The translations under genes and the position numbers were made by a program. A stretch of 64,000 nt of DNA from Paecilomyces variotii (taxonomy: Eukaryota): assembly GCA_004022145.1 (NCBI GenBank), contig RCNU01000012.1. The stretch is one strand, 5' to 3'. Every line of letters starts with the position of its first letter. Position 1 is the stretch's first letter. Shown in pieces: positions 2,684 to 46,846 of this stretch. Below the pieces are notes generated by a model. The model did no database searches and was not told the DNA's origin. It saw only the letters and a program-made list of their open reading frames with translations.

Positions 2684-3880
2684 ATGATATCTTTGCCATC
2701 ACAGCTGCCAGACCATCACCTGGACGAGTTTTCTGTCCCGACAGACTGTGGATCTGTTGTTCACGGATATAGTCGCGGGCTCTCCATAGAACAATCAGAG
2801 GCGAACGCCGTCCTTGTTTTAATCCATGGATATCCAATGACGTGAGATGTTCCAAGATAGCAGTGGCTGACCCTGACTGACAATGAGTGAAGAAATCTAC
2901 TGTTCGTCTTTCCCCATCGATTTTATCGTAATTTGATAGTTGGGCGACGTCGTCTGGCATTGTCTCAAGCAAACACTAATCAATGAACGAGACTTCCTGT
3001 TATTCAGATGGCGTCACGTATGGTCCTGAATAGATCTTCGTGATTGTTCGAAGCTGATGATGGGGGCCAGGTCATAAAGAATCTTCCCGACGATATTCCT
3101 CTCTTTGTGCCTGATATCCCGGGATACGGTAACAGCACGCCAAGTAAGACTGGGCACGATAAAGCAACTATAGGAAAAGCTATCCTTGACGCATTGAACA
3201 AAGTGCTTCAAAATGACCCGACCAAGCCTCCAAGACGCATTGTTCTTGCAGGCCATGATCGTGGGGCGCGGATCAGCCACCGTCTCAGTGTTGATGCTGG
3301 AGAGTTCTCAGATAAGTTTACTATAATAGGCACCATACTGATGGACATCGTACCTACGGTGGTCCAGTGGCACGGCATGAAGAATCCTGTTGAGGCAGCT
3401 GGCTTCTTTCATTGGCCGTTCCTTGCGAACGTGGAGTTGGCCACATCTATGATCCTCAAGGTCGGAGGAGATGTCTTCATCCGCAGTTTATGTGAACGAT
3501 GGTTGGGAGATCTGACTTATCCGGGACGTCGGAGTCTCATACAGGACGGCGCTCAGCAGGCATACGAAGAGACTTTCAAGCGTGAAAGTGTTATCAGGGC
3601 GGCTTGCCTCGATTATGAGGCAGCTGCTACCGTGGATGTTGACCGACAGAAGTACGACCAAGAGCATGGGAGAAAGATTCAGATACCAACGTTAGTTCTC
3701 CATTGTTCTGCACTCGGCAGACGGTTCAGTATGACAGACACTTGGGAGGAATGGGTTGCTGACGGAAAGAACCTGTTGTCTGTCATGGAAATAGGTGAGG
3801 GTGCTGGGCACTCATTCCCGGAGGAAGCCCCTGAGACTACAGCAAAGGCCATGCTGGAGTGGATCAGGAGATACAATTAA
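2684..3880 (+). CDS. Alpha/beta hydrolase, haloacetate (fluoroacetate) dehalogenase/epoxide hydrolase-like
   Basis: HGYP oxyanion motif, DIPGYG, nucleophile motif GHDRGAR, FFHWPFLA, CLDYEAAA and GHSFPEEAPE. Introns at 2842-2892, 2902-3007 and 3018-3070. Confidence 0.88.
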
Positions 3881-5151: not shown

Positions 5152-5908
5152 GCCTTCCGCTCCGAAGACGGCTGCATCCAACCCATTCCTACAAGCATTC
5201 TTCACAAGAGGCAGGATGAGACAGCTCCCGTGGTATTTATGGGGTGATCACTAAGTGTCTGTCACCGTCGTATTTCAAGAGTGATAAGACATGAGCCTAT
5301 TGGGCGCCCGTATTTGCGAGAAGACAATTCGCTAAATTTTGCAAGCAACCCTAGCAAGTTTTAGATGGATGTTGCTTACTGGTAAGCCAGGTTGCACTGG
5401 ACATAAGCGCGAGGGGATTTGCATGTTATTATTAGCCTGCAAAGGAGTCAGAATTGATATTGTCCTAGAATTTCCGGCCTCTTGGGTCGTCTGGTTTCCC
5501 GCCACGAAGCTTGGCTTACACTAGCGAGGACAGATGTCTCAGTTGTGATACTTAAATTCAGTGATCCCTGTGATAAAACCAACCTCGTCCCGGCTACCCA
5601 GCAGCTAAGTATATGCAATTATGTACTGTACAAAACCTAACTTTCGTTCATCACATCAATTTTTAATTCTATCACTAGATGCGTATAATTGGCGCTACTC
5701 CGGAAGATCCGACTGCAATTACTTGAGTGTTCCTGACGTCGTCGTTGAAACTGATCAAAGTGCTGGAACAGGAATACAAGGAAAGCCCGTAACAGATTTG
5801 CTTCGCTCAAAGATAGGAACACTGACTGGTGTAGAATAATATGCAATATGGCAACTGACATTGCTCATACTAAATATTACTTTTCACGCTTCTCACTGGC
5901 CGACAAAT

Positions 5909-6050
5909 CCGAGGTATTCCACCCAATCGGAGCTCCTCGGCATCAACACACATCCTCGGTAATATCATATTTGGACTAAATATTATCCCTTGACGACTCG
6001 GAAAGGCCACAACAAGAGCTAAACTATCTTTCCTAGTGAACTCACCTCGG
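5909..6050. promoter_or_regulatory. Cluster of four CCTCGG/CCGAGG motifs (FarA/FarB-type site) upstream of the Zn2Cys6 gene
   Basis: CCGAGG at 5909-5914 and CCTCGG at 5935-5940, 5954-5959 and 6045-6050. Chance expectation for a hexamer on either strand is about 1 per 2 kb. Confidence 0.6.
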
Positions 6051-6067
6051 GGAGGCGACCGTTTGAG

Positions 6068-8418
6068 ATGTCAGAACACCGTTCCCGAGCACCTGTCGCA
6101 TGCCAGAACTGTCGTAAACGCAAAGTACGGTGCAGCGTAACCGTGACTGGACTGCCTTGCGTAGGCTGTACTCAGGATCGTATCGAGTGTACCGTTCCGC
6201 CGAGAAAACCTCACCCGTAAGATGTCTGATATAGAATAATGCCATCGAGTCTGCTGATTATTGTTAGTCCGCGACGTAACCGTTCATCTGCTGCCCGCCG
6301 TATTCCTTCAAGACAGCCCAATTCTACAGTCTCGGATGGGCTTGATAATAGGCCTCGTTCGATTGTCTCCCCGGAGTCGATCAGGAGGCTTCCATTATTG
6401 GCTCCGAGTCAGCCCCCAATAATATCAAATAGAGATGATCGCATTAGCAACACGCTGCCTACAGAAGACCGACTCAGCGTGCAGGAAGAGGAGCGCAATG
6501 GGATGGACATTGCGACGGCAGCATTAGAGCAGCCACAGAGAGCGGGCCAAGTTCCTTTCTATCCAGGTAAGCAGCAACATCACTGTAGGAATGAAGAGAC
6601 TGAGTTCGATCGCAACTAGGTGAACAGACCGGGATCACATCCGTTTTCGAGATCTGCCTACCACAACATGCTCTACCTAGGCACCTTCTGGTACCTTTGC
6701 GTTCCTCATATACTATATCGCAAGAAGACCAGGACTACCTCAGAAGCAAAGGCGTTTATACATTACCGAGACACGACTCTTGCGAGTGTCTTTTGAATGC
6801 GTACTTGCATCATGTACACCCTATTATGCCAGTCGTTGATATCAGTGTCCTGATAAATCACCAACAAGAAGGACGCCTGGATCAATATAACCTCTTACTC
6901 CTGTGGAGCATATTTTTTGCAGGAGTCAATGTAAGTGACACAACATACTCATTTGGCTTGAATCCTCACAAAGTCTCCAGTTCGTCCCCGCACGCATTTG
7001 GGAACAAGAAGGCTATAAATCACGGAAAGAAATGAAAGCCACCATGTACTATCGGGCAAAGGTGAGCACTCCGTCTCTGTCAGAACGACAGTTGCTTGTG
7101 TGCGAATTCAACTCACTGGTTTTGTCCGTAGTGCATGTACAACATAGGGATCGAGAGAGATAAAATCGTGCAATTGCAAGCATCTCTCCTGCTGGGATTC
7201 TGGCACTCAGACTTGGATGAAATTACCCAACCTTGGTATTGGACAGGGATCGCCATCAACCTGTGTCAGATGCTGGGACTCCATCGTGATCCGGATGCGA
7301 GTCGATACAACTCGGCGATATCGGATGAGCAACGCCGTCTATGGCGCCGTCTCTTTTGGAACTGTCTCTTCCGAGACCGCTGGTTGAGCCTGACTCTGGG
7401 AAGGCCACTACGTATTGTTCTAAACGATTGCGATACTCCCATGCCATCAGCTTCTGATGTTCTGGATGACACCAAGAGAATATCTCAGGTCGCGGCGAAT
7501 ACATATCTCCCAAGCGACTTTGCGCAATTAGCGCAATACTGGGTCAAGCTTGTACATCTCAGTAAGCTGTTGGGCGCAACATTGACGATGAATTATCAAC
7601 TCCTTGGGCCGACACCGACACTTCATCAAGTGGAAGGCCTCGAAGGCGAAATCCTGCAGTGCAAGGTTCCAGAACAATATGACCCTGGACTGAGTCGACT
7701 TGCGATCTTCTATATGTACCACGTACAGTTACATTATCAGTGAGAACCCATGGACCATTCATTACGTGACTAGCAATGACTTATTCCGCAGGGCACTACT
7801 GATCACGTTTTACCGGCCATACATAACCAAGACCCCCGTCGGCCTCCATGATCTCCATCAGAAGGAATGGCACCACATGATACGACTAAAAGTCGAATCA
7901 GCGGCTTCGAGAACGAATTCTATTTTGGACATTATGGCCCAAGACAAGCTCCTGGAGTTTGCTTGTCCTATGACGTAAGTGATAACATTAACTCCTTTGA
8001 AGAATTTACTACGTTCTTCTGTTTGCTAAAAGTATTTGAAACCGATAGAACGCCCTTATTGATGCCCGCCATGCACACACATCTCATGAATTGCAAATCT
8101 ACAGATCCTCTCTCGCAGCGTTTGGGTCTCAACAAGCTTAACATGTGTATGATGGTGTTGCAGGAGCTACAGGAAACATACGTTGTAGCTTCTATATATC
8201 GGGGCGTCTTCTCGAAAGCGATAAAACAACTATGCCCGGAATACGCGTCAAGTATTCCCGAAGATGTCATTCGACCACCCACAGCGGAATATGCATCTGC
8301 AGAGGCAAGGAATGACGACGGGGAAGTCATAGATACGATGATTTCTGATGATCTTATTGATTCACTCATGGACGAGGCATCTATATTTAGTTTATGGGAA
8401 AGCTGGAGTCGGATGTAA
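6068..8418 (+). CDS. Zn(II)2Cys6 transcription factor with fungal-specific TF domain (CTF1/Far-like)
   Basis: First exon, missed by the ORF track, encodes MSEHRSRAPVACQNCRKRKVRCSVTVTGLPCVGCTQDRIEC. The middle homology region has YLHHVHPIMPVVD, LGLHRDP, WRRLFW and LGRPLRI. Multiple introns. Confidence 0.9.
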
Positions 8419-8594
8419 CATAGAGTAGATATTTACTTGGTATTCAGACGGCTCATGATTAGAAGGCCTTTTACGTACAATAAATGACACAAGATAATCT
8501 CACAAAATAATCTAGAGAAACCGACTAGGATGAGAAAGAGAAAATACCATATGTTTGCTATGTCTCTATAATAACAATACAAGTCGGCCGCCCT

Positions 8595-10534
8595 CTACAA
8601 AAGAGCGATACCGGTGAAGGCCCTGTAATCATCTGAATGTATCTTCTCCTTAGCCCCGCCATCCAGATGGTACCTGTAAATGTTTCCACCAAGATCCGTC
8701 AAATAGATACAACGGTTTTCGTGGTCCAGCTTCAGTCCAATTGCCTCTTTCATGTGCCGTGTGATAACCTCGTATTTCTGTGATGAAGAGATACCTATCA
8801 GCGAGCCATCGGCGTCCAGCTTCGTTCTATACAAAGCATTGCCCAAAGGGACTTCTCCACGATCGGTCCAGTAGAGTGTGCGAGACTCCTCGTCTACTTC
8901 GAGATCAATGGGTTCCGGAAGCCCACTAAGGATGCATTCGATGTCACTTCGCGATGATGCTGCCTGGTTTGAAGGAGTTTCGATATTCGCAGAGAATATA
9001 CGACCTTTTCCGGATTTGGAAAATCCCTTCTGAGTCCAGTAGAACTTTCCCAGCTTCGGTGCCACAGCGACGCCTACGCACCACTTCCGTCCATCGTTGC
9101 GCTCTTCGTCGTTCTCCCAGTCTCCATTCTTGATCAAAGTTTCCAGGTTGGAGCCGTCGTAATTGCAGCGGAAAACCCGTAGCCCTTCACGGTCACAGAA
9201 GTAAATCTTCTTTGCGGTTCTATCCAAAGCCAATTGTTTTGGTGTATTAGCTCCACCAGGGGCAACGATAGTCTTGATATCAGTGCCATCCACACCAGCG
9301 GAGTACACAGTTCCATCGTTATTTCCTGGGACGCCCATGCATGTCCAAAACATGCGTCCACTCTCATAGTCAACGTCAATTCCATCTGGTAGAGACTGGT
9401 TCTTAGCAAGAACGCGTTGTATTTTGCCATCTGTGCTCAGCTCCAGGATCTCTCCAGATGTAGTCGTTGGTTTTTCTGCGGATAGCCCGATATCCAAGGC
9501 TATTATCCTACGGCCTGCTGTGGACGCATCCTTTCCTTCTGGGGGATATAGGCCACCCTTCGAGCATTTCGCACCGAGTTTTCCGTTGTCGAGATAGTTC
9601 TTCCGCAGAAAGTCGACTGTCTTTTCTGGTGAAAGGCCACGCTCATCAATGTAGTGTTGCTCAATAAAGGCAACAGTGTCAAGTCCGACATCTAGGCGAT
9701 TGCATGTTAGAGAGAAAATCGTGTCATTCTTCCATGAAATCGACCACTTACTGTCCATCATGCGACAGGGGATTACTCCGCTCTTAATAAACATCTCTGT
9801 CCACATTGAGTCGATCTCTTCTGGAACAGAGACCCCCTCAGCCAGGATCGTCAATATCTCGCGCTTGACGGCCGCCCATATCCGATTGAAGATGAAGCCG
9901 GTGGACTCCTTCCTAGCGACATAAGGCAGAGTTGCAGCTTCTTTCGACCGTTGAACCAGGAACGTAATTATATCCTCGGCAGTATGTCCGTCAGTCATAA
10001 GTTCCACGATCATACACTGAGGGGGCATATAGTAATGCATATTCAGTATGCGAGCTCTGGCTTCGTCAGGAACCTTTTGCAGCATCTCCGATGATTTGTA
10101 AGAGGAAGAATTGGATGCAAGTATACAGTCTGTCGGAGCAACAGCTGCGAGCTCTGCAAAGGTGTCTATCTTGAAGTTGATTTTTTCCGGAATGGCTTCG
10201 ATAACGAGCCATGCGTTTTTCACTGCATCCTGTAGCGCATCGAATGCTTGAGTGGCACCGGGGGCTTTTTGTGTTTTCTTTGCGTAAGAATGGACATTTT
10301 CTTCAATGTAGGCGATGGCGTCGGCGCGTTGCTGGGAACTCGGGTCACGAATGTTAACATCATATCCTGCAGATGCCCAGATGCATCCTGTATATGAAAT
10401 TTAAATTAGTATATTTCGTTTCGACACCCAGCCATGATTATTTGAGACATACCAATCCGGCGCCCGAGAACACCACCCCCAAGGACCGCAACGGGGCGTT
10501 TGCGGTAGTCGGACGGTGGTTGCCAGGATGCCAT
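8595..10534 (-). CDS. 3-hydroxyacyl-CoA dehydrogenase fused to a C-terminal YWTD/LDLR-type beta-propeller
   Basis: First exon MASWQPPSDYRKRPVAVLGGGVLGRRI (Rossmann GxGxxG), then VIEAIPE, ASNSSS, catalytic HYYMPP...VELM and GFIFNRI. C-terminal repeats MFWTC, IYFCD, FYWTQ, LYWTD and IYLTD. Confidence 0.9.
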
Positions 10535-11080
10535 TCTGTTTAGACTATATATGCTGAGCAGGACAGGGTTGCTTTCCTTGATAAGTCGATACTGAGATTC
10601 AGTGCAATACCGTGTTGAGCCACAACCAACCGAGAAGAGAAGCTGGCGCCGTGTACTCTTTTATACACTTCCTACGCAATTCGATATAGTTCCTACGGCT
10701 ACCTTGCACACTGCCCGAGAATCTCCGGGACGGGCGGCATTATGGAGAGAATGACAAATCCCGGAAGCTCGGCCATTAACCTATGGATATTTATGCTCGG
10801 ATCTGGCTCTCCGTGGCAAATGAATAACTGGCTGTTGTGGCCTGTAAACCGATCATAGAGCGAAAACGTGGACAGAACATCGGGTACCTGAACCACGGCA
10901 AACCGGGCCCACTATCAGATCGGTTCGGCAGTCAATGATACTCGGCCCGGTTTCTAGGTCTGCCATTGAGTTCCAATTGGCTTCAATTCTGGCCGAGGTT
11001 ACTTTGAAACAGGCTTCATATCGCTCACCGAAGACCAACCGGTTCCCCCAGCGAACGTAATTTACTAGCAACACGAAAAC

Positions 11081-11082
11081 AA

Positions 11083-11112
<30 letters not shown>
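11081..11112. repeat. Compound microsatellite A10 + (AG)11
   Basis: Directly visible in the sequence. Confidence 0.9.
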
Positions 11113-11113
<1 letters not shown>

Positions 11114-11416
11114 CAAGTATGTCAAGTAGTCTGCGGATAGTTATGTAGATTGTAAGTTGTGCATGGTAATCTCTGACGATCTTTCGCATAACGTGCTAGA
11201 GGACTTCTTAGCTATGTGCTGACAATGTCCAACTTCTTCTCCTTTTTCTATTTGGGATAGAATCTAGTCCTTGGCAGAGGCCGCTCAAGAAATGAGGACA
11301 TGGAGAAGTAACCAGTAGTAGTTGAGTCTATTCTAATTCTATCAAAGTCCAAAGTTGAAAAAAAGGTGACAACAACCGAAGCACTCAACAAGTTCCAAAA
11401 CACATTGCATGCAACT

Positions 11417-12860
11417 CTAGAAGCAGAAAATTTGATCGCTCATTTTTGACACACTCCCTGGGGCTTGGAAACCCATGTTTATCAATGCTTTCTTCGAAGC
11501 ATTTACCATCCCCGGAGGTCCGCACAGCATGATTTTGGTATCCATAGATGGTTTGGGTAATTTAGCCGCCATCACATCAGCCGTAACAAATCCTTTTCCA
11601 TAGGCCCATTTCTGAGGGGGGTTGTCCAACATGTACCAAATCTTGAAGTTCCTCGGGTAGTGGCGAGCGAAGAATTCCAACTCTTTCCTTAGGAGGATAT
11701 CCTCTTCAGACCGGTTGGCATAGATCAGACTTACTTGTGTTAGGTCGGTCTCATCCTCACAGATCGCCCGAATAAGTTGATACATTGGTGTAATTCCAGT
11801 ACCTCCGGCGATCATTCCTATTTGTTTGCAGAGGCCAGAATGATACTTCATCGCACCCTTCGGGCCTCGAAATAGGACCTTGTCGCCAACCTCCAGATTT
11901 GCGAGATAATGGCCCGTGAGAACGCCATCTGGGTAGCACTTGATGACTAGCTCAAGCTTGCCTAAGTCGGTATTGTTCGACGTCGGGGTGTAAGAACGAG
12001 AGACAGCTGCCCCATTGATAGTAGCTTTGATGGCAACGTGCTGGCCGATAGGAATGCCAATTACGTCCGTTGGGTTGGGTAGTTGGAAGACAAAGCGGAA
12101 AACATTCGGCGATAGCTTGTCCTTCTTAATTAGAGGAAGACTTTTGTATTCCTTGGGTTCGAGGAAACCTCTCGCAAGATTGGGGTTGAGCTTAGCGATC
12201 TTGCGACTTTTAACATGTGGAGGGTATCTTTCGAAACCAGCCTCGATATGAAGGACCTTCGACAGCTGGACTCCTATCATTCCTCCGGCAGCTGCACATA
12301 AAGCTGTAGCGCTGATGAAGCCGTTCGAGAACCCTCCGCGTGGAAGTTGGATCTCTGGCAGATCCTTAAGCCACACCTTGGGAAGTCGGGCGAGTTTGTC
12401 GGGAAGGTCGATGTAGCTTCGGGAGAAAAACAGCAGTGATGCCAAACCACCAAGAGAGGTGATAATGGCAATATTTCCCAACATGGAGGATTTGGTTGTT
12501 GGGAGAGGTGCGCTTTGTGGAATCACACGGACAGCTTTCGGGCGAACAACCTCCTGGGAATCCTTTAAGGTGCCAATCAAGTATTGTTCGAGGATCTCAC
12601 TGGCATCCTCTGAGTGTCCGACGTCTTCGAAGGCTCCCGTTGCGTCCGTTCCGCCGACGTCGATGAGGAGGTCTTGTCCTCCAGGATGGTCTTGGATGTA
12701 CTTCGTAATGTCATAGACTGGAGTGACTGAGATTAGGGAAATGAAACGGAAGTGCCCTTTGCTCACTAGACTCACCTTTGCCATGAATGGCGACCCAAAG
12801 GTCACTTTTTGTGTTGTGACCTTCAATGTCTTTAAGAGAAAACTCCCGTGTCGATGCCAT
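11417..12860 (-). CDS. Cytochrome b5 - NADH-cytochrome b5 reductase fusion protein
   Basis: True first exon MASTREFSLKDIEGHNTKSDLWVAIHGK, intron 12718-12775. b5 heme motifs HPGG and VGHS, two hydrophobic linker segments, FAD motif RSYTP, NADH motifs AGGTGITPM and CGPPGM, and a C-terminal F. Confidence 0.92.
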
Positions 12861-13198
12861 TTTGAGATGTAGTTGTACCCCTTCGTATAGCTGACAGAAA
12901 AATCGATTGGTACAGAGTACTGTATACGCAAGAGAAACGATAAGAGCTCAAGCAATTTTATGTTGTCACCTTGGGGAAATATACTAACATATCAAGTCAG
13001 GGAAGCGAGTAGAGACGGCGTGGGGTGGTGACAAGGATATCGTTTTATGTTTCCGTCAGTAGGTATGCATATACCTCGCAATTTCCCGCCACACACATGT
13101 TCTCCTTTTCTGCTCTTATCTCTTGCCCCTACGAAAGCATCTAGATCTGCTCACTAAACCACAAAAATAGCTCACTTCGTTTCCACCGTTATATGTCA

Positions 13199-13351
13199 CC
13201 TCGGCAAGCAAAGCGTCACTAAATTAAGGAGGCTGTGATATGTCGCAGCCCCTGCAGCAAGCCGAAGAAGCCGAGGAAGCCGAGGAATTGGATGTCGATT
13301 ATCCAATCGGGATATGTATATGCAGCGCACTGTGGCCAACCAAATCCTCGG
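13199..13351. promoter_or_regulatory. Four CCTCGG/CCGAGG motifs in the divergent b5-reductase/P450 promoter
   Basis: CCTCGG at 13199-13204, CCGAGG at 13271-13276 and 13280-13285 (within a 9-bp tandem GAAGCCGAG unit), CCTCGG at 13346-13351. Confidence 0.6.
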
Positions 13352-13626
13352 CATCTCTTTTTAACCGATGGATACCCCGTCGATCATCCGGCATCCCGAT
13401 CATAGTCGTATCCGATTGGGTTTGACACTTATTTCAAGGTACAACATCGCGGCAAAGCAATATCTAAGCTGAGAGAGTTGTGGGGCATGTCATATACATA
13501 TTCCCTGGTCATTAAAAGGCGCTATCACTATATAACTCCATAGCTACGCCGGAGAGTGTGGCCAGACATGACCTAGTCAGTCACATCAATTGAACTGTGT
13601 TTTCGCAATTAACAAAGTCTAAGATC

Positions 13627-15470
13627 ATGCCTGGTCTTCAATTCCCTACAAAGCAATTCTACCTCCTTGGTGAGGAAATCTCATCTGCAAAGGAACTGGA
13701 CCTAGACCCTTCGTTGAATATCGATGGACTCCAACACTTAATCGCGGCTCACTTCGCTATTGTTGAACCGACAGGTCAGTAATTTTGTGTTTTTCTTCAT
13801 TCTTTCTTCAGCAATATACCCATGACTGGTTCCTTTCTGACAACATGATACTGACGCATGACTGGTCAGGAATTGGTTTTCAGACAAAAGATTCCACCCT
13901 CGCGGATATCGCCGATATTATCGCCTCTGACGGCCCAGTCGCAATAACAATCGATGGGCATGCGGTTAGAGAACCCCCGGGCCCGAAGGGTCTACCGTTC
14001 GTGGGAAACTTCTTGCAAGTGTACCCGGACCACCTGGGTAACCATCAGCGTCTGTTCGAACAATACGGACCGGTCATCAAGACGAATAACATGGGCCGTG
14101 TTACTTATCAGACAAATGACCCGACAATCTCCGCGATCGCTTTATCGGAGAGCGACTTCTTTACCAAGGGCATCAATGAAGCGCATCCTCTCTTCGGCCT
14201 GAAGACGCCAGAGGCTGGAATCTTCCTCGGTGATACCGATACGCCGGAGTGGAGAGTTGCCCATAAATTTATACCACCCGCTCTCGGGCCTAAGGCTGTC
14301 CGTCATTATGCGCCCACTATGCAGAAGACGGTTGAAGATTCTTTCAAGGTCTTTGACGCGCTTGACGAACAGGGTGAAGCTTGGAACGTCTACCAGTACA
14401 TGTTGAAGCTCGGCTCGCAGGCTGTCGGCAAGCTTACGCTGGGCATAGATTTCAACCACTTTACGCACCCAGATGCGCCACTTCATGAAATGGTCCATCT
14501 GATTGCTGAGCTATTATCTCTGAATAAAAAGGTCACCTCAAAGGGTGACTGGTATGCCGCTTTGCCTTTTGGTGACCCGAAACGACTTAGGGCTACCAAG
14601 CGGCGCATTGAGGAAATGGTGGATGATTCAATTCGAAAAGCTGCGAGTGGCGGAGTAGAAGACCTTCCCTTACAAGAGGCTGCATTGCTAGCTGCAAACA
14701 TGGTCGGTAAGTGATTCTGAATCAGAGTATATCCTTTCCAAAAAGCTTATGACTATGGAGACTACGCGATACGTGCCACGGACAACAAAGGCGAAAAGCT
14801 TCCCAAGGAGAGCTTAGTCTGGGCCCTTACAGTTGCGACTGGTGCGGGTTTTACAACAACTAGCTCTCTCCTCTCATGGCTTATCTACGGTCTTACTACC
14901 TATCCTGGGATGCAGGAACGCCTTCTCCAGGAACTCATCGACAACGATATTGATGAGAACACTGAGATCACCGCTGATGTTACCGACCGTTTAAGCTTCT
15001 TAGACAAATACATCAAAGAGACACAGCGTCGTCACAACCCCTCCTACCAGCCAGGACGAACTGCAAAAGTCGATCTTGTTCTTCCAGGAGGCTACAAATT
15101 GGCCAAAGACTCGATTTTGATTCCAGCGCTACATCACATCCATAACAACCCCCAACACTGGGACAACCCCGGCCGCTTCGATCCGGACCGATGGGACACT
15201 CCTGCAGTCAAGAACAGACACAAGGCTGCTTATATACCATTTGCAACGGGACAACGTATGTGCATAGGATTCAACTTTGCACTGCAGGAGATCAAGGTCT
15301 TCCTTCCGAAGCTCGTATACCGGTACAAGTTTACTCGAGAAGGGGATGGCATTATTGAGTATGATCCCATGTTCCAGCTCATCAGACCGAACAATCTCTA
15401 TGTACGTGCAGAGAGAAGAGTCAAGTGGCCGCCGAAGAGTAACGCTGCGGTTGGAAAGACTCTTTCCTGA
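13627..15470 (+). CDS. Cytochrome P450 without N-terminal membrane anchor (resembles the CYP540 family)
   Basis: PPGPKGLPFVGN, I-helix GAGFTTT, K-helix ETQR, FDPDRW and heme motif PFATGQRMCIG. Introns near 13775-13869 and 14707-14760. The family assignment is from recognition only. Confidence 0.92.
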
Positions 15471-25958: not shown

Positions 25959-27440
25959 TTATTTCTGTATGTCCTCCTTGCGCAGGTAGCTAGGTATCTT
26001 CTCGCCAGCACGCCATTTATATTGGCTTCCAGGATGGTCTTCCGGTAGTCTCCTAGATCCAATAAAGACTTCTCTTGCTGTCGCACCCTCCTTGGCTACT
26101 TTGCTCCGGAAACGTCCCCGCTTCCGCAGCTCTGGCAGTAGGTATTCAATAATGTCTTCAAAGGTGCCTGGATTGGTGATATGGGCTAGGTTGAACCCAT
26201 CGACTCCCGAAACCTCTACCCAACGCTCAAGCTCATCTGCAACAGTCGACGGACTACCAATGACCTTTGCTTGGAGCCCACCAACGCTGATATATTCGGC
26301 AATTCGTTTCTTAGTCCATGGGAGGTTATCAGTACCGGGGACTGTAGCAGACCATCGCCGCACAATGGACTGAACGCGTGGAGAATCACTCAACCTGAAG
26401 TCCTCATCATCGGCGTAGCCCGATAGGTCAACTCCTGTCCATCCGCCAAAAAGCGCCAGGGCACCCTCCTGATTGGCATATCCTAGGTATTCTTCCCGCT
26501 TGGCTTTGGCTTCTTCATCGGTAGCGGCCACAATCACATTGATTCCAAGAATCACTTTAATGTGATTCGGATCCCGCCCTTCCTTCTTTGCGACATTGCG
26601 AATATTATCCACGGTCACCCGAGCAACCTCCGGAGTTTGGCCACCGATAAAGATTGCTTCTCCATGTTTTCCTCCAAACCCATTACCAGCCTCTGAAACA
26701 CCGGCCTGGAACAAGAAGGGAGTGCGCTGTGGAGAGGGCTCACAGAAATGTGGCCCTGGAACCTGGAAATACTTCCCTTGATGATGAATCTGTAGCACGG
26801 CATCACTGGCGATGTACGTTCCACGTTCTCGATCTGCTAAGACGGCATCGTCGCGGAAGCTCCCCTCCCAGAGTTTGTAGAGCACCTCCATATACTCATG
26901 CGCAATCGCATATCGCTCGTCATGCGGAATTTGCTCATTCAGTCCGTGATTTCGCGCAGCACTGTCGAGATAGGATGTGACAATATTCCAGGCGACGCGT
27001 CCCTCACTGAGATGGTCCACCGTGGAAAGCCTTCGAGCCAAGGCGTATGGCTTCTCGTAAGTCAGGCTTGCAGTGACCCCGAAAATCAGATTTTTTGTTG
27101 CCGCTGCCATTGCAGGCACCAGATACAATGGGTCGTTAACGGGGAATTGTGCTCCTGCTGCTAAGGCGGGCACGACATTTGCAGGACCCTTATAAACATC
27201 ATATGGACCCAAAGTATCCGCGATGAACATGGCATGAAAACCGGCATTGTCGAGTAATCGTGCTAAGTCGGTCCAAAAAGAGAGTTTCTTGTACTGATCG
27301 GTTTTGTTTCTCGGATGGCGCCATAATCCCGGGGCCAAGTGCCCAGGAGTGTTCATCTCAAAGGCATTCAGAATGAATTCTTTCTTTTCACCAGGGCTGC
27401 CCGCATCCGTCGCTGGCGCACTACGACTGCTATCGGCCAT
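25959..27440 (-). CDS. FMNH2-dependent luciferase-like monooxygenase, DszA/SoxA/NtaA family; intronless
   Basis: GLWRHP, FIAD, STVDHLSEGRVAWNIVTS, PSPQRTPFLFQAG, GVDGFN and LLPELRKRG in a 493 aa single ORF. Confidence 0.92.
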   Translation of the reverse strand: MADSSRSAPATDAGSPGEKKEFILNAFEMNTPGHLAPGLWRHPRNKTDQYKKLSFWTDLARLLDNAGFHAMFIADTLGPYDVYKGPANVVPALAAGAQFPVNDPLYLVPAMAAATKNLIFGVTASLTYEKPYALARRLSTVDHLSEGRVAWNIVTSYLDSAARNHGLNEQIPHDERYAIAHEYMEVLYKLWEGSFRDDAVLADRERGTYIASDAVLQIHHQGKYFQVPGPHFCEPSPQRTPFLFQAGVSEAGNGFGGKHGEAIFIGGQTPEVARVTVDNIRNVAKKEGRDPNHIKVILGINVIVAATDEEAKAKREEYLGYANQEGALALFGGWTGVDLSGYADDEDFRLSDSPRVQSIVRRWSATVPGTDNLPWTKKRIAEYISVGGLQAKVIGSPSTVADELERWVEVSGVDGFNLAHITNPGTFEDIIEYLLPELRKRGRFRSKVAKEGATAREVFIGSRRLPEDHPGSQYKWRAGEKIPSYLRKEDIQK

Positions 27441-27979
27441 GCTGTTTACAACGCTGGGGTCGACCTTTTGAAGGCTAGGTGAATAGCAGATGGTGGCAAT
27501 CTGGGAAAGAATCGGGATGTCAACGTTGATAAGTAAGCACCAGTCGAGTTTCGATTTCCTTGTTAGAAAAGACCAATTAACTATTTATGCCTGTCCCGTG
27601 GTATATTTAACATATTCGGACCCCTGCCAGGATGACCACTACTGAACGTGCGCAACTTTATGTTCCTTTCAGAGAGCTTTCTTGTTGGCCGCTCACCATC
27701 GTCATACTAGGCTTATTGCACGCCATTCTACCCCACTATCAACCATTCAGTTAACTTCAGGGTACCGTGTCTCGATTATTATTTCCATTATCTTGGCAAG
27801 AGGTTTTAGTTCCTCAGACGGACTGGAAATAAAATCAGAACGTGTTCACGGCTATTTGTTAGTGATGCTGTCTTATCTAGACTGTAGATGGCCATGGGTT
27901 CTAGCCCAGCACGCCATTCTGTATAACGCCATCACTGACAGCTACGACGTGACGGTTTAAGTGGCTCGGTACAGCTTCT

Positions 27980-34820: not shown

Positions 34821-36332
<1,512 letters not shown>

Positions 36333-36908: not shown

Positions 36909-38351
36909 TCACACCGATCTCTTTCTGATACGTGGTAGAACGCCCCAGCATCCTTCCATTGCCACAAACAGTCCGATACAGATAGGATGGAGGAGAAACG
37001 TTCCTACCTTCTGTGCTAGAAGACCTGTCGCCAAAGGCGCTACTGCACCCCCACTGCTACCCAAGGCACTAATAAAACTCAGACTAGACATCTGAATGTT
37101 TCGAGGGAGCAGTTTAGTAAATACCGCCGCTGCACAAGGGAATATAGGACCCAGGAGCAAACCAACAATGGCCACTGCGACAGCTTCACCGATCAAGTTT
37201 GGAACTAGCCAAACAATAAGCTGAAACCCGAGGGCACCAGCAATGGCCATGACAACAAAGAATTTCTCCCCCAATCGCTGCGCTGGGTGCGAGAGGAGGA
37301 ATCGTCCTACCGTAATACCGGCCCAGAAACCAGCACTCACGTAACCCACATCTGCAAGATTGCCATGACGGTAGGTGACCAGGAACGAAACGATCCATCC
37401 TGAAATCGAGACTTCTGCACCCTGGTAGGCGAATATGAAGAGGGCCCCAAGGATCGTGACGCGGTTCTTGATTCCTCTGAAGGTGCCAGCATGGGAGTGA
37501 TCTTCGGTATGGGGATCAGAAGACGATCGTGACATCCGCATAGCAGCCAGTTCATTCTCATAACCTCTGAATGTCCAACTCGCCAACGCAGTGTTGATGA
37601 CGGCCATTCCCAACGTTATGAAGTAGAATGGTGACCACTTCCCAGTATGAGATGCAATTGCTGTTGCCATCAGCGGGCCCAAAGTGCCACCAATGCCATA
37701 ACTGCCGTGGAGAAGTCCCAGCGCAACCGTTCCATTCGCCAGATTCGCACAGAAGACGTTACTCAACGCCAATGCAGTCGCGAGTCCGAACCCAATGGGC
37801 AAGAACGCAATCACAACGACAGGGAAAGGAGGCGTACAGACCAAAGCGAGAAAGGCCGCACAGATTGCAACCTCCGCAACCATGTATGTGCGCGCTCGGC
37901 CGAGACGTCGCTCGAGGATATGGGTACACGGAGCAGCAGCGAGAAAGCCAACCGCATTGGCAACGAAAATCAAGGATACGAGAGCGTAGCCAATATTATA
38001 TTTCTTTTCGATGTAGGGAATCAGAGCTCCTGGAGCACTATCGTTGAGCCCACCAGCAAAATTTATCAGACTGACGCTTAGAACGCGGTATCTATTGATC
38101 GCGGGGTTCGAGATGCTTGGCAGGATGATAGATGCTTCGTTTCTTCGAGAGTCTGAAGCCAGATCTTCGATCTCGAGTTGCTGTGCTGGAAAGTCTTCCG
38201 CTGGCCTGTCTGTAACACAGATTGCGACATCAATTGCTCCTGTTGCATGTCCACCAGCGTTTGTTTCTACGTCCATGCTGACCGCTGCATCATTGCCGTA
38301 GCGGTCAGACTCACGAACGGCCTCGACTGCTGAAGACCGGATAGCAGCCAT
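36909..38351 (-). CDS. MFS transporter (Bsc6/fucose-permease-like); intronless
   Basis: 480 aa with about 12 TM segments. GLNDSAPGALIPYIE, LHGSYGIGGTLGP, YQGAEVSISGW and FWAGITVGR. Confidence 0.9.
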   Translation of the reverse strand: MAAIRSSAVEAVRESDRYGNDAAVSMDVETNAGGHATGAIDVAICVTDRPAEDFPAQQLEIEDLASDSRRNEASIILPSISNPAINRYRVLSVSLINFAGGLNDSAPGALIPYIEKKYNIGYALVSLIFVANAVGFLAAAPCTHILERRLGRARTYMVAEVAICAAFLALVCTPPFPVVVIAFLPIGFGLATALALSNVFCANLANGTVALGLLHGSYGIGGTLGPLMATAIASHTGKWSPFYFITLGMAVINTALASWTFRGYENELAAMRMSRSSSDPHTEDHSHAGTFRGIKNRVTILGALFIFAYQGAEVSISGWIVSFLVTYRHGNLADVGYVSAGFWAGITVGRFLLSHPAQRLGEKFFVVMAIAGALGFQLIVWLVPNLIGEAVAVAIVGLLLGPIFPCAAAVFTKLLPRNIQMSSLSFISALGSSGGAVAPLATGLLAQKVGTFLLHPICIGLFVAMEGCWGVLPRIRKRSV

Positions 38352-39096
38352 TTTGGACCGGCGTATTGCTTTGAGGATAGGCTAATTGCATCATAAATGA
38401 GAATCATAGTTGAATCAAAACTTCTTCACTCTGGAGGATAACTAACTGGTAATATTTCCACAACTGATCCATCATTATTATTACCCCGCATCCCCAGATG
38501 ATTATTAATGCTAGATAGTGTAGATCTTGTATTATTATCCGGGCATTAAGATCCAACATTCCGCCCTCTCATGACTAGACGGTGTGTTTTTGCAATAGCT
38601 CGATGGCTTTCCCTTATCGTCCGATTAGGTTTGCATAATAGCAATACTTGCATAGTCGCTTGTGAGATTAGGCTAATCGTAACTTGGAGAGAAAAGAGCG
38701 TACAGTATCATCCATGACTGTCTCAAGTATCTTCTTAAGCAAGAATAAGTTTAAGAAGAAAAAGATCCTGCTTTCATTACAACAATAAAAAAGCAAGAGA
38801 CCTCGCGAGACGGGCAAATAAGCACAAATCTCGACCTTTGCTTACTATTTAGTGCCCGAATTCTTATCTATCAAAACGGGATTAGATACGGTTTCTGCTC
38901 CGGGAAATGGCGGGGCGTCTCTGTCCAAGCGAAAAAACGTTAATTACTTGACTGACTTGCGCGGAGAATTGAATTGACCGATGAAACATCTCTCACAATC
39001 GACCGATGGCATTATATGGACAACCAAGAATACCAGAAAACCTCAGGATAAAACTCTCAATTGCTCTCTCTTCCAAACCACCTACACTCCCCCACC

Positions 39097-41687: not shown

Positions 41688-42975
41688 CTCTTTTCTCAAC
41701 TTTTCATCTAGATACTGATACATATTGAGGAACAGCAACGTGGAGGCTGGCATTCCAGGCGGGAGATCGACAACACCGTGATGGAGCAGTAAATACAAAT
41801 AATAATTAAGCATTGTTGGAACGTCAAGTAGAGTGGGTACCTGGGGATCAACGAGATTGTTTTCGAATGCGTAATTATCAACCTCATACAGGAATATATC
41901 CTCTGCACCGTTGGATCGTCGTCATATCCGTCTGCGTACAGTATCGCGCGTACCGGAGATAGCTGCCATCGAACCTGGTTGCCGTTTTCTATTCTCTAGT
42001 ATCCTCTGTCTACATCTGATCTTGTGGTTTATTGTGTTAATGACTGAGGCTGGCAATAGTTGTATACGCAGATTTTCATAGTACTCTTGGCGTTCGTCAA
42101 CGTAATTACTACTTGTTTCGCTTCCATATGATCCTTGTCATAGATGAACGGTAGGCTCATAGATCTCTAGTAACTATAAAGTCTGCGGAAACGCAAGTAC
42201 TTTAGTGTTCTCCGAATATTAAGCCTATTGTTGAGATGTCATCCGCGACCGCTGATTCCGCTATATATACTCCTTAATGTACTGGCACCCTGAAAGTTCT
42301 CATGGTACATTATCGTCAAACGTTAACCGTAAAAACTTGCGCGTCTTTCACTTAGCTTGAAATGAGAAAGGATCGGGCAGATCCCAGAATAGACTCATCG
42401 TACATCGAGTAAAGGTATATCAATCTCACGCCCAAAATAGAAACAACTCAGCTTGCAGCTGGTCTGTAAGTTCGCTTATTCTCAACACCATCCAGGACCT
42501 ATCTCCATGACTGATAACAAGATGCGTGGTCTCTTTGACGATTAAATGCGGCCATTGTTTCTTCAAAATACATGGTATAGTACAACGAAAAGCGAATCTC
42601 TTGTTCACATCTCCATGGTTACTCTTTGTGTACTGCATCTATTAGAGTGATCAACAAAGGACTAACGCTTTCATTTTCTGATTTCTTGATGGATTCTTCC
42701 TGGTTTATTCTTTTCCCTCGGATCTTTGGGCGAACCTCTTTCAGTGGGCTTTATGAATCTCAATCCCATTGTCAAATCCTTTGTTTATGAAGCAGTTACG
42801 GAGATGCCTCTTATAGTATATCTCTTCATCTTTCGCATTCGACGTATAGATGCATACTACTGTATATCAACTCTTTTTCTCATATATACATATAATATCC
42901 CCTTGTCGAACACATTTTCCTTAATCGAAGCCTGCATCCTACAGAGTAGCGGGTTTCTATATCATATCTCAAGAC

Positions 42976-45900
42976 ATGCCGCCTCGACGCTCCCGCAATC
43001 CAAGCAGAGACTACGAAGACCCTCCTGTCCGATACCCACTATATAACCTCGGACTCCTCCCCGACCCACCTGATAACTGGCTACTATGGAATGAAGACAA
43101 GAGAGCTTTCTGCGGTGGCCGTCGCGTCAGTCGCGCAAAAGCAAAGGAGTTAGCTGATTTCCATTTCTGGGGTATAAACCCCGGTATTGAAGGGCGTGAC
43201 TCTACAGAACGACTGATGGTAGCGCTCCGCAAGCTCATGTACTATCAATCCGCTCACCACAGGCCTCCTGAATATTCTGAGTTCCTCAATACGCAGAGAG
43301 ATGCCGGGCCGAGACTTCTGGATCCTAATTTGGTCCCGCAGCCTCTACCTATAAGTCGTTTCTTTTCTCTCCTTCCTCAGGATGCGCAGGCTGGAGCGCT
43401 TTCGCAGATTGATATCGCCCGACTGACCGAGAGACAGCGTTTATATCCGTCAACTCGCTCAGGTAATACGACAGCGCTTCGGAATCCAGGAGGTTTAAAT
43501 ATCAGCAGTTCAAATACGGGTTCCCTCAACCGAGGCGGGCTAAATATAAGCAGCTTCAGTCCTTTGGACAGGTACGATCCTACCGGTGGACTTACAGACG
43601 CGGATATCGACCTGATATTGCGTAACGCTACGGAGGCCCTTGCCACTCCAGTCCTGACAGGCGATCTTGCAGCAATAGGGGGCCAAGAGTTTGGACTTCG
43701 CTCTCTGGGCAGTAATGATTTCGACTCTATTCTCAGTCAGATGGCGCAGAATACACCGAGTCGTGCCATTGCTGATCCTTCTCGAACAGGCTTCCAGACA
43801 GGTACGGCGACTCGTGGATCTGAATTGAACAGGTCTCCCCTTGGAAGCCCAGAGATTACTATGGCGGATGCGGGCCCAATCTCAGGACGCAATTCTATCA
43901 GCGGAAGCCTGACGAGCTCTCAAATAAATACACAGCGTCCGATCTCGCAAGATAGTATGGGCCAAGGAGAGCTATCCCAGCAGGCCTCTAATCCACTTCA
44001 ATCTTCAAGCCCCTATACGACAGGGCAACTTCGTTCTAGTGGAATAAGCAACAACACTGATATAGTCACCGAAGAGATCCAGAGGGCCATCATGCGAATT
44101 ACGTATCGAGATCTAGAAAGACACGCCAGTGCTTTACCCCGGGGCCTGCACCCTCAGTCAATTGCAACAAATGAAGAACATCTTCTGCAAGTCCAGCAGA
44201 GAATCTCTCCAATGGCCGGTGCCGTTCGCCTGTCTAGCATTGAGGGCAGTTCCTTTCGCATAGATCCAAATGGCATTAACTATGCATATCGGGGTCGTGG
44301 ACCCGTGTGGAGGAACAACTCCTGTGCTGTTGACTGTGTCATTGTTGCTGGAAGGTTGCTTGATGCAGGATGCACAAATAAGGACCGAGCAAGTCCCGAG
44401 TGGGAGAGGTCCCTGACTATTCTTGAAAGAGCATATATCCAGGCGATAAATATAGACTGGGATATACTATCAAGAGAACAGAGTATGGATACACGGGACC
44501 GTTTCTGGGAGATCCTGGCTGGGAATATCCCCGGCATGGAAGTTGGCATTCCATCGCCACCAACATCTATATGGGAAGAATCGACCAAGTCATTTGAACA
44601 ATTCAAGTTTTCTTATACAGAGGAAATATCATATTGTTCCTGTAGAAGAATGGGGAATAGTCGCAGAACATATGCCCATCGCTCAGTGTCTCCTGCTTTT
44701 ATACCTGCTGATCAAAATGGTGTATCGATGGAAACCCTAGTACAGAGAAGTTTCAGATCTCACAGAGGGATTTGCAGATATTGTAGAAAGGGCATCGCGA
44801 TACGCAGCCGGACTTTCCACCAGCTTCCTCTCCGCATGGTTGTTGAACTGCACAAGGATGCACGTCCGAGGAACCACACGGCGAATATCACAATCGAATA
44901 TAAAGATCGAGATGGACAAGATCAAAAGGCAACTTATCGCTGGCTAGGAGGTATATACCGCACCACGTCGGGGAGATATATTAACGAGCTAGGAGAAGAA
45001 GTCGATTCGTACCATTTCCGAGTCTACTGGACCGATGTGGAAAGAGGAGAAGTCGACACTCATGAGATTCGCATGTACGACGGAATGGAGAACCTCGGTC
45101 TCATTGCGGGCAATATTGCTCCCTCCCATCGAGATGAGCGGGTTCCTGAGAAGTGGTGGAAAGATCAGTCGATACCGCTATTGTTCTATGAGCGTGTGCT
45201 GAATCCAGAGAGTGAAGTGCTATCTGCGGCCAAGGACACAATAATGAATATGATTGACGTGAAAGAGAACAATGGGCTAATTATGCAGCAGCTCTGTCAG
45301 TGGCGGCCATCCAATATGCCTGCAAATCCAATCCCACCTGAGAGAACAGTCTTTCAGCCAACTGACAGCCAAATGCTTTCCATGCCTCCCAGGGAAAATG
45401 TGACTATGGGGGCCTCTGGTGCACGGCAAATATTGGAAACTTATTTTGATGGGAATCTTCTCAATCCAAGCAGAAATCGACCTTCTTCATCTTTGGTCCC
45501 TGGTTTCACTTCTAGCAGACAAACTGAACCGATCCAGCAGAATCAACCTAAAGTTCCATCGTCTTCTGGTGCCAGTCGTCCAAGTTTCGCACAGCCAGGA
45601 GCTGTAGGGTATGCTCCCAACGATGCTAGACGCAGTGTTAAACAGAGTGAATCAACCTTTCCGACTGCAAGCTATGTGGAATCACCCAGACGACATACTC
45701 CGGGTATTCACTCGAGTGAAGTGGGCGACTCCCTTTCACATCCTGTGGTCACTGAAGATGACCAAGTGCCCGATACAGAGACACAATCCCAGAGACAAGA
45801 GCAGACACAGCACAACATGCCCTCGCAGAGCTGGCTACAGGAAACCCTTCCTTCTCTTACTCAACATCAAGAACATGATATACCACCATTGCCAGAACTG

Positions 45901-46846
45901 GACCCTCATTTCCCAGAGGATCAGCCCCATATTCCAGAGCTACCCAACTTACAAGAAGAGACACAGACTCAAGAGACAAGCCAAGGGCAACAAGAAGAGA
46001 CTACTCTCACCGGAGATCAGACAGCCACTAGACAGCCGAAACTGGCCAGCGCTGACCAACTCGATAGATTTGCTCGTGGTCTACAACAATCCTATGAGCA
46101 ACTCGATGCCGAGTCTCATGATCAATTTGATGTTTTCATGATGCATGATATAACGCCTAATGCTTGGAGACCCGGGGAGCTAAAACAGGAGAAAAAGTAT
46201 CCGACATCCGTTGGGGAAATTTGGGACTGGATAGGAAGGCTGCAACAGTTCGACCTCGAAAGGATGGAAGAGCAGTGGAAATACTTGGGCTACGTACCAG
46301 AAGAACACGCACTATGGAAAGAAACGACATTGGCACAGGCTCCGAATACAGTGTCCAAAAAGCGGAAAGTCTATTATGCAGATGATGATTTGAAGGGGGA
46401 TTTGACGTATGATTTCCCGGACATGCTACCAACGATATCGAAAGAAAGTGAAGGTAAGTTTCTGACACTCAAGAGAATCTATTTTAATCCAAATCACTAT
46501 GGGGAACAAAGGGACTAACAGAAAAGCAGGTAATTCAAACCTAATTGCCCCTGAAAAAGGCCATATCACCAGCCCATCCCACAATACGTGCCTCGGAAAA
46601 AGAAAGAGGGACACAGTGCCAAGCTCACCTCTAACTACTGAGATGTCCTGTCTTGAGGGACATACTTCATCAGCTCATAGCCAGACAGGCCACATGTCTC
46701 CTCCTCTTCCACCGCAATCGGACCATCGAGAAATATTACTCGCAGAGCCCGCTGGAGTTACTCGTGACGATATGATGGGAGAGATCGAGATAGAGGACCT
46801 CGATCAGCTTTTCGAAGACCCTGAAGAATTCTTGAGCTTTCAATGA
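42976..46846 (+). CDS. Large protein with a central divergent USP/papain-like cysteine protease domain and low-complexity flanks
   Basis: 1180 aa ORF. A probable intron at 46454-46529 extends it to 46846. Motifs WRNNSCAVD, CSC...CRYC, LPLRMVVEL, YRWLGGIY, YHF, YDG and LLFYER. Confidence 0.75.

Follow-up and report, generated by a model that had tools for sequence, protein, structure and literature searches.

What does a filamentous fungus do with a cytochrome P450 gene that is flanked by genes for its own electron donor, a dehydrogenase and a regulator? The question is raised by positions 6068-15470 of a 64,000-nucleotide stretch of Paecilomyces variotii DNA from contig RCNU01000012.1 (the whole stretch, 64 kb long, is referred to as the window). 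An earlier note, made from the letters of this DNA alone, had proposed that the P450 hydroxylates a carboxylic or fatty acid at C3, that the dehydrogenase oxidizes the product to the 3-oxo compound, and that the resulting NADH returns to the P450 through a fused cytochrome b5/NADH-cytochrome b5 reductase, so that the acyl-CoA dehydrogenase and hydratase steps of beta-oxidation are bypassed. The note also mentioned a similar CYP540 system in Aspergillus nidulans, which proved to be that of Kojima et al. (Commun Biol 2025; PMC12462446). The locus is very probably a Paecilomyces member of this published fungal "P450-dependent beta-oxidation bypass" cluster, with the chemistry of its clade projected from homology and from the retention of key residues. 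Because Kojima et al. describe the system and tabulate a P. variotii cluster, both the system and its presence in this species are already known.

In A. nidulans, the AN8918-AN8921 cluster encodes a transcription factor, CYP540A2, a fusion protein termed CBBR and a beta-hydroxy-acid dehydrogenase (beta-HDH). CBBR (AN8920) is a natural fusion of cytochrome b5 with cytochrome b5 reductase, and it carries out the NADH-driven reduction of CYP540A2 (AN8919). Together the two proteins convert free C7-C12 acids, and weakly acids up to C16, to (R)-3-hydroxy acids; with NADPH-cytochrome P450 reductase (CPR) and NADPH, only 5.5% of CYP540A2 activity is obtained. The dehydrogenase AN8921, which combines 3HCDH and YWTD domains, produces 3-oxo acids from free (R)-3-hydroxy acids of C8-C14, using NAD+. 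C8-C10 acids switch on the cluster genes, and decanoic acid builds up in knockouts. The same study used cblaster to recover 714 clusters from 662 strains, and in most of these the fusion gene is head to head with the P450 gene. The row [quoted passage not shown] stands in Supplementary Table 3, which also lists two P. lecythidis strains (PMC12462446). The observations made here at the window locus concern gene content, order, splicing, domain architecture, key-residue conservation and conserved synteny.

Gene models and conservation of the arrangement

Genes were located by combining stop-to-stop open reading frames (ORFs; standard code) with a Pfam scan, and introns were set by hand from the DNA. 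Four intact genes result, encoding a Zn2Cys6 regulator, a 3HCDH-YWTD dehydrogenase, a b5/b5-reductase fusion and a P450 (Table 1). They stand side by side, as the earlier note had described. Compared with annotated P. variotii proteins, the spliced models show one difference for the P450 (P0001), one for the fusion (P0121) and none for the dehydrogenase (P0241). The fusion and P450 genes are head to head with 766 bp between their start codons, close to the ~770 bp previously estimated for a divergent promoter, and the dehydrogenase gene is separated from the fusion gene by 882 bp. The regulator carries Zn_clus (E 1e-8) and Fungal_trans (E 3e-23) domains. The gene is a candidate AN8918-type regulator, and the published table scores a P. 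variotii cluster as having one (PMC12462446).

Spliced RNA contigs from runs X6 and/or X9 confirm five of the six regulator introns (6217-6267, 6567-6619, 6931-6980, 7740-7791 and 7975-8048); the sole support for the sixth, 7062-7131, is a loose contig end at 7130. Contigs of run X6 reveal an additional intron in the regulator's 5' leader (5958-6035) and confirm the coding intron of the fusion gene (12718-12775) and the second P450 intron (14707-14760). An intron in the 5' untranslated region of the fusion gene (12920-12988) is likewise revealed by RNA contigs, which place the fusion leader beyond 12989 and cover the P450 leader from at least 13565. Contigs of run X9 cover the regulator and no other cluster gene. 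Two further runs, X1 and X2, yielded long contigs over the locus that are all unspliced. These probably represent DNA within the RNA libraries and therefore were not counted as transcription.

The window locus and AN8918-AN8921 are made up of the same four gene types, and in both the fusion gene is head to head with the P450 gene. They also have in common an N-terminal domain on the P450, a Ser/Gln clamp for the substrate carboxylate, a fusion organized as b5, two-helix linker and b5 reductase, and a dehydrogenase with 3HCDH and YWTD parts. Gene order differs: the window has regulator, dehydrogenase, fusion and P450, whereas the A. nidulans gene numbers give regulator, P450, fusion and dehydrogenase.

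A search for synteny, which the earlier note had proposed, found the arrangement kept across at least 12 species. Counts were taken from locus-tag names in lists of the top 120 homologues and thus are lower bounds. P450 and fusion genes are consecutive at 13 or more loci in at least 12 species, and fusion and dehydrogenase genes are consecutive in at least 11 species. All three are consecutive, with the fusion in the center as in the window, in at least five species (Helicocarpus griseus, Talaromyces atroroseus, Scytalidium lignicola, Penicillium coprophilum and P. nucicola). Because the locus tags are consecutive across species, the arrangement is not a product of chance.

The enzymes, their proposed chemistry and regulation

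The P450 has a Pfam p450 match at residues 85-538 of 564 and a heme motif, FATGQRMCIG, with Cys496. It belongs to the CYP540 family, which supplies the family assignment that had been called for. A search of 1.84 billion representatives yielded P0363, which carries the peptides QRLHNASFQPGR, IEYDPEFQLIRPL and FYLIGDE. Because these are signature peptides of CYP540A2, P0363 is of the CYP540A2 type.

The residues that hold the substrate carboxylate in CYP540A2 are retained. Mutagenesis primers given in PMC12462446, translated by hand here, yield the CYP540A2 contexts QRLHNA-S431-FQPGR and EYDPEF-Q542-LIRPL, and the window P450 has QRRHNP-S423-YQPGR and EYDPMF-Q534-LIRPN. The distance from S423 to Q534 is 111 residues, equal to that from S431 to Q542. 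All 120 listed homologues have both Ser and Gln, and so do 36 of the 37 sequences in alignment A1; only the most distant representative (42% identity) departs from this pattern. Basic positions on the proximal face that are predicted to face b5 (PMC12462446) are likewise kept as Arg or Lys (R178, K182, K191, R194 and K483).

The I-helix is unusual. Residues 357-363 (encoded in the region 14700-14722) read AGFTTTS, compared with the usual A/G-G-x-D/E-T-T/S, so that Thr takes the place of the acidic residue. All 37 aligned family members, the CYP540A2 type among them, share T360 and T361.

The earlier note identified the P450 correctly and missed an extra N-terminal domain of ~85 residues. In CYP540A2, the corresponding domain was left unassigned (PMC12462446). 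The window domain aligns with P0363 from residue 11, and its QFYLLGEE corresponds to QFYLIGDE in the primer-derived CYP540A2 sequence. An AlphaFold2 model of residues 1-95 has a mean predicted local distance difference test (pLDDT) score of 79.2 and contains strands at 8-14, 22-25, 51-54 and 73-77 and helices at 32-42 and 63-68, in the order E8-14 E22-25 H32-42 E51-54 H63-68 E73-77. The Foldseek matches shown are mostly ubiquitin or ubiquitin-like (UBL) domains (best E 4e-3, template-modeling score ~0.55), and VIA-align gives Z scores of 8.4-7.0 over 64-86 residues, mostly to UBL, ubiquitin and doublecortin domains. Although individual scores are middling, the prevalence of beta-grasp folds among the matches leads us to predict a ubiquitin-like beta-grasp fold for this domain.

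Relatives of ~1200 amino acids in which the P450 is fused to CPR (P0398, P0403 and P0413) have an alignable extension of ~87 residues before the P450 domain, and hhalign comparison of the N-domain profile with P0403 gives a weak match (probability 64%). Because CPR-fused relatives also have such an extension, the domain may not be specific to b5 docking. Complex prediction for the P450 with residues 1-95 of the fusion (its b5 domain) and two hemes gave scores of 0.12 and 0.21 against a mark of 0.34, from a predictor that did not use our own alignments; these scores argue neither for nor against the contact.

In the fusion protein, Pfam finds Cyt-b5 at residues 9-80, FAD_binding_6 at 222-320 and NAD_binding_1 at 330-437, so that the layout of b5, two-helix linker and b5 reductase is that of the published protein (PMC12462446). 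Two uncharged linker stretches have Kyte-Doolittle means over 19 residues of 1.83 (residues 108-126) and 1.62 (162-180). The AlphaFold2 model places helices at 112-127 and 158-184 and gives residues 88-157 pLDDT values below 50. At least one hydrophobic linker stretch above 1.5 is found in 110 of the 114 fusion homologues that could be parsed from 120 listed. We suggest that the linker helices are remnants of two anchors, the b5 tail anchor and the one at the N-terminus of b5 reductase, and that they may form a membrane hairpin. The window helices reach membrane-like hydrophobicity, whereas the A. nidulans proteins are described as soluble and free of transmembrane residues (PMC12462446). Mammalian Ncb5or shares with the fusion the order of b5 followed by b5 reductase and electron transfer driven by NAD(P)H. 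Ncb5or has a CS hinge between its domains, whereas the window fusion has two hydrophobic helices there, no CS (CHORD-SGT1) domain by Pfam at E <=0.001, and a neighboring P450 as the acceptor.

The dehydrogenase has 3HCDH_N (E 4e-26) and 3HCDH domains, in agreement with the earlier note, and a C-terminal YWTD beta-propeller that the note had overlooked; the best solved matches to the propeller are those of LRP2 (E 4e-28). The Ser, His, Glu and Asn motifs ASNSSS (118), NMHYY (143), IVELM (154) and GFIFNR (191) align with those of solved 3HCDH-family enzymes. The two best solved relatives are diketoreductase 4dyd (E 7e-17) and 4om8 (E 2e-16), both of which act on substrates that are not CoA esters, and CoA-dependent solved relatives are weaker (~3e-13). 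A combination of lambda-crystallin/L-gulonate-3-dehydrogenase with an SMP30-type lactonase was considered and rejected: lambda-crystallin matches at E 1.6e-14, weaker than diketoreductase, and the C-terminal half is a YWTD propeller, with an SGL match that falls under the cut-off. By eye, none of the C-termini of the three enzymes (…TLS, …FCF and …ALL) resembles the peroxisomal targeting signal -SKL.

These components would operate as follows. The CBBR-type fusion would pass hydride from NADH to FAD and electrons on to the b5 heme and then to the neighboring soluble CYP540-family P450. The P450 would bind a free medium-chain fatty acid by its carboxylate, through Ser423 and Gln534, and hydroxylate C3. 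The 3HCDH-YWTD dehydrogenase would oxidize the free 3-hydroxy acid with NAD+, giving the 3-oxo acid and regenerating NADH. A 3-ketoacid CoA-transferase encoded outside the cluster would then activate the 3-oxo acid, or this acid would be decarboxylated. Expression would be switched on in response to fatty acids by the Zn2Cys6 factor, by Far-type factors at CCTCGG sites, or by both.

The sequence of reactions proposed in the earlier note, with its bypass of acyl-CoA dehydrogenase and hydratase, matches the A. nidulans biochemistry and would extend to the window by homology. Its suggestion that the pathway is redox-neutral stands as ideal stoichiometry, in which the steps cancel. Neutrality is an idealization, however, because ~3.3 NADH are oxidized per P450 reduced (PMC12462446) and electron transfer is slow. 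The note had also observed that no acyl-CoA ligase gene lies in the cluster, so that the dehydrogenase acts on free acids or activation comes from elsewhere. The A. nidulans dehydrogenase accepts free (R)-3-hydroxy acids (PMC12462446), which settles this question. Among the 25 other window ORFs of at least 170 amino acids, Pfam detects no CoA-transferase, acyl-CoA ligase or thiolase, although genes with short exons could escape such a scan. This result agrees with the published scheme, in which a transferase encoded elsewhere performs the activation.

The motif CCTCGG/CCGAGG is of the Far/CTF1 type and is also the cutinase motif of CTF1 (PMC5068947). It occurs 43 times in the window compared with 27.8 ± 5.1 in shuffled sequences, an enrichment that was noticed first and tested afterwards. 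Four sites within 160 bp occur at only two places in the 64 kb, one in the promoter between fusion and P450 genes, where four sites in 153 bp compare with ~0.1 expected, and one that partly overlaps the regulator's 5' leader (Table 1). The clusters are suggestive of induction by fatty acids. The region upstream of the dehydrogenase gene has one site of this type (10993).

Clade membership and alternative substrates

The A. nidulans genome has a second cluster, consisting of AN3862 (CBBR), AN10479 (CYP540B4, called "CYP540B2" in the Discussion of that paper) and AN10471 (beta-HDH), which its authors regard as a redundant isozyme set (PMC12462446). The same paper and the homologue lists indicate that many species have two clusters per genome. 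In a quick maximum-likelihood tree that carried long-branch warnings, the window P450 is placed in a shallow 26-row clade together with sequences from A. mulundensis, A. fischeri, Trichoderma and Metarhizium, and a paralogue clade of 7 rows lies next to this clade. The window P450 is 71% identical to its own representative, P0361. P0107, the homologue from A. mulundensis (77% identity in alignment A1), groups with the window P450, apart from P0363. Because the window clade is distinct from P0363 in the tree and includes the A. mulundensis protein, the window locus most likely belongs to the type of the second cluster (CYP540B4, AN3862 and AN10471), and that cluster is probably a member of the same clade, with orthology itself a matter of inference.

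Under the P450 naming rule, members of a CYP subfamily share more than 55% identity and group together in a tree. The window P450 is 52% identical to P0363, which is a CYP540A2-type sequence and not the A. nidulans protein, and this value together with its position in the tree leans against membership in the CYP540A subfamily. Sordariomycete homologues (P0040, P0041, P0093 and others from Trichoderma and Metarhizium) are 78-85% identical to those of Eurotiales and are nested among them in the quick tree. Such nesting could mean that the cluster is under strong constraint or has been transferred horizontally.

Several points weigh against equating the window locus with the characterized bypass. 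Besides the modest identity to P0363, that sequence lies on a long branch outside both the window clade and the paralogue clade of the quick tree. Termini like those of AN8919, AN8920 and AN8921, as deduced from primers, occur in none of 360 listed homologues. Two N-domain residues of CYP540A2 predicted to bind b5, K30 and R36, are N31 and H37 in the window. No contig of run X6 or X9 lies over the dehydrogenase gene, a result from contigs, which cannot show absence. The CCTCGG enrichment was tested only after it had been seen. The enzyme activities, the specificity for NADH, the (R)-stereochemistry and the response to C8-C10 acids have been demonstrated only for the A. nidulans paralogue and would carry over to the window clade by homology. 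Moreover, the first electron transfer to CYP540A2 is slow (k3 ~9e-3 per s; PMC12462446), and turnover this slow means that medium-chain acids may not be the best substrate even of the studied enzyme.

In the window clade, which is probably of the CYP540B type, the same machinery might act on another carboxylic acid, on another chain length or at another carbon, with the dehydrogenase oxidizing a correspondingly different hydroxy acid; cutin- or suberin-derived hydroxy or dicarboxylic acids are examples. The separation from the CYP540A2 type and the slowness of the studied enzyme would fit this alternative, as would the presence of two clusters in many species and the fact that CCTCGG is also the cutinase motif. 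Last-exon identities within the clade are 80-95% among Eurotiales, Trichoderma and Metarhizium, a degree of conservation suggesting that the clade has its own, constrained role. Nevertheless, every listed homologue retains Ser423 and Gln534, whose CYP540A2 equivalents position C3 above the heme, the partner dehydrogenase is of the same type, and the second cluster is considered a redundant isozyme by those who described it. A change of substrate is thus rather unlikely, and C3 hydroxylation of free medium-chain acids is preferred.

The relationship to self-sufficient P450s raises the prospect of a different regiochemistry. The nearest P450 relatives outside the CYP540 family are CYP505 and CYP102 (P450foxy and P450BM3), which likewise are fatty-acid hydroxylases. 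The next relatives in our searches share 25-31% identity and are proteins of ~1100-1300 amino acids that combine P450, flavodoxin and FAD domains, and CYP540A2 has been placed next to CYP505A8 (PMC12462446). The window enzyme could accordingly be imagined as an omega-1 to omega-3 hydroxylase that uses b5 and b5 reductase in place of a fused CPR, beside a dehydrogenase unrelated to its product. However, CYP505 and CYP102 differ in having a fused CPR, use of NADPH, subterminal hydroxylation and a canonical AGHETTS I-helix. No diflavin reductase is fused to the window P450, which has 564 amino acids with the p450 domain only, and its electron-transfer domains are encoded by the neighboring gene. 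In the CPR-fused P0413, the I-helix is AGHETTS and both carboxylate positions differ, whereas AGFTTTS, S423 and Q534 of the window are like those of the CYP540A2 type. The products of CYP540A2 are beta-hydroxy acids with some gamma and little alpha (PMC12462446), and a 3-hydroxy-acid dehydrogenase is conserved beside the P450. Subterminal hydroxylation is therefore very improbable.

The CYP152 peroxygenases (P450BSbeta, SPalpha and OleT) resemble CYP540 in oxidizing free fatty acids, held by the carboxylate, at the alpha or beta carbon. CYP152 enzymes use H2O2 and an active-site Arg, whereas CYP540 is an O2- and NADH-dependent monooxygenase with a Ser/Gln clamp (PMC12462446).

That the genes are a tailoring module of a secondary-metabolite cluster, as the transferred name "alnD" given by the source to two homologues might imply, is extremely improbable, since Pfam finds no polyketide synthase, nonribosomal peptide synthetase or terpene synthase among the 25 other window ORFs of at least 170 amino acids and in many species these three or four genes occur together with no such partners.

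Possible fate of the 3-oxo acid and features of the window

The earlier note had mentioned methyl-ketone formation as another outlet of the pathway. Free 3-oxo acids would lose CO2, spontaneously or by the action of a decarboxylase, to give 2-alkanones. Fungal methyl-ketone formation is reported to halt after one round (PMC3985342), and decarboxylation of the 3-oxo acid would account for an end after one "cycle." We offer tentatively, and with considerable doubt, an extended proposal in which the window clade, rather than being a soluble feeder of beta-oxidation, is the long-sought route by which toxic medium-chain fatty acids become methyl ketones with one carbon fewer, the fusion is held at a membrane by its linker hairpin, and Far-type factors acting at the CCTCGG clusters drive expression. 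The terms "ketone," "decarboxyl" and "nonanone" are absent from the main text of PMC12462446, and no further relevant paper came up in a search of the CYP540 literature dated 2024 or later.

The system is notable for a P450 with a dedicated fusion of NADH-b5 reductase and b5, and for an entry of free medium-chain acids into beta-oxidation that is independent of CoA; credit for both belongs to Kojima et al. (PMC12462446). The value of the window locus is that it represents a sister clade that is more widespread and more conserved, and the substrate range of this clade would tell how general the bypass is. The cellular location of the fusion and the conversion of 3-oxo acids to methyl ketones also bear on that generality. 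The methyl-ketone question is relevant to food molds and to their tolerance of fatty-acid preservatives.

Table 1. Positions of genes and other features of the P. variotii locus within the window
Feature	Position	Strand	Details and basis
Zn2Cys6 transcription factor gene	6068..8418	+	exons 6068-6216, 6268-6566, 6620-6930, 6981-7061, 7132-7739, 7792-7974, 8049-8418
CCTCGG/CCGAGG cluster (n=4) just upstream of regulator ATG	5909..6050	.	sites 5909, 5935, 5954, 6045
Beta-hydroxy-acid dehydrogenase gene, 604 aa	8595..10534	-	exons 10534-10453, 10387-9752, 9691-8595; Pfam, P0241 identity
CBBR-type b5/linker/NADH-b5-reductase fusion gene, 461 aa	11417..12860	-	exons 12860-12776, 12717-11417
Coding region of fusion linker, two hydrophobic helices	12263..12481	-	residues 108-126 (12425-12481), 162-180 (12263-12319)
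Divergent promoter of fusion and P450 genes, 766 bp	12861..13626	.	ATG positions in gene models (12860, -; 13627, +)
CCTCGG/CCGAGG cluster (n=4) in fusion/P450 promoter	13199..13351	.	sites 13199, 13271, 13280, 13346
CYP540-family P450 gene, 564 aa	13627..15470	+	exons 13627-13774, 13870-14706, 14761-15470
Coding region of extra P450 N-terminal domain (residues ~1-84)	13627..13973	+	split by intron 13775-13869

Other genes in the window encode an alpha/beta hydrolase (3044-3880, plus strand), which sits 2 kb upstream of the cluster, a luciferase-like monooxygenase (25959-27584, minus strand), an NADH:flavin oxidoreductase of the old-yellow-enzyme type (35287-35979, plus strand) and a major facilitator superfamily transporter (36909-38381, minus strand). 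An open frame of 1197 codons at 42925-46518 (plus strand) is without a Pfam match at E <=0.001.

Run X1, a food-fermentation library, contains a related strain whose divergence is uneven along the cluster. It has 41 differences over 5807-11065, the half with the regulator and dehydrogenase genes, many of them in 10023-10293, and one difference over 11124-14575, the half with the fusion and P450 genes.

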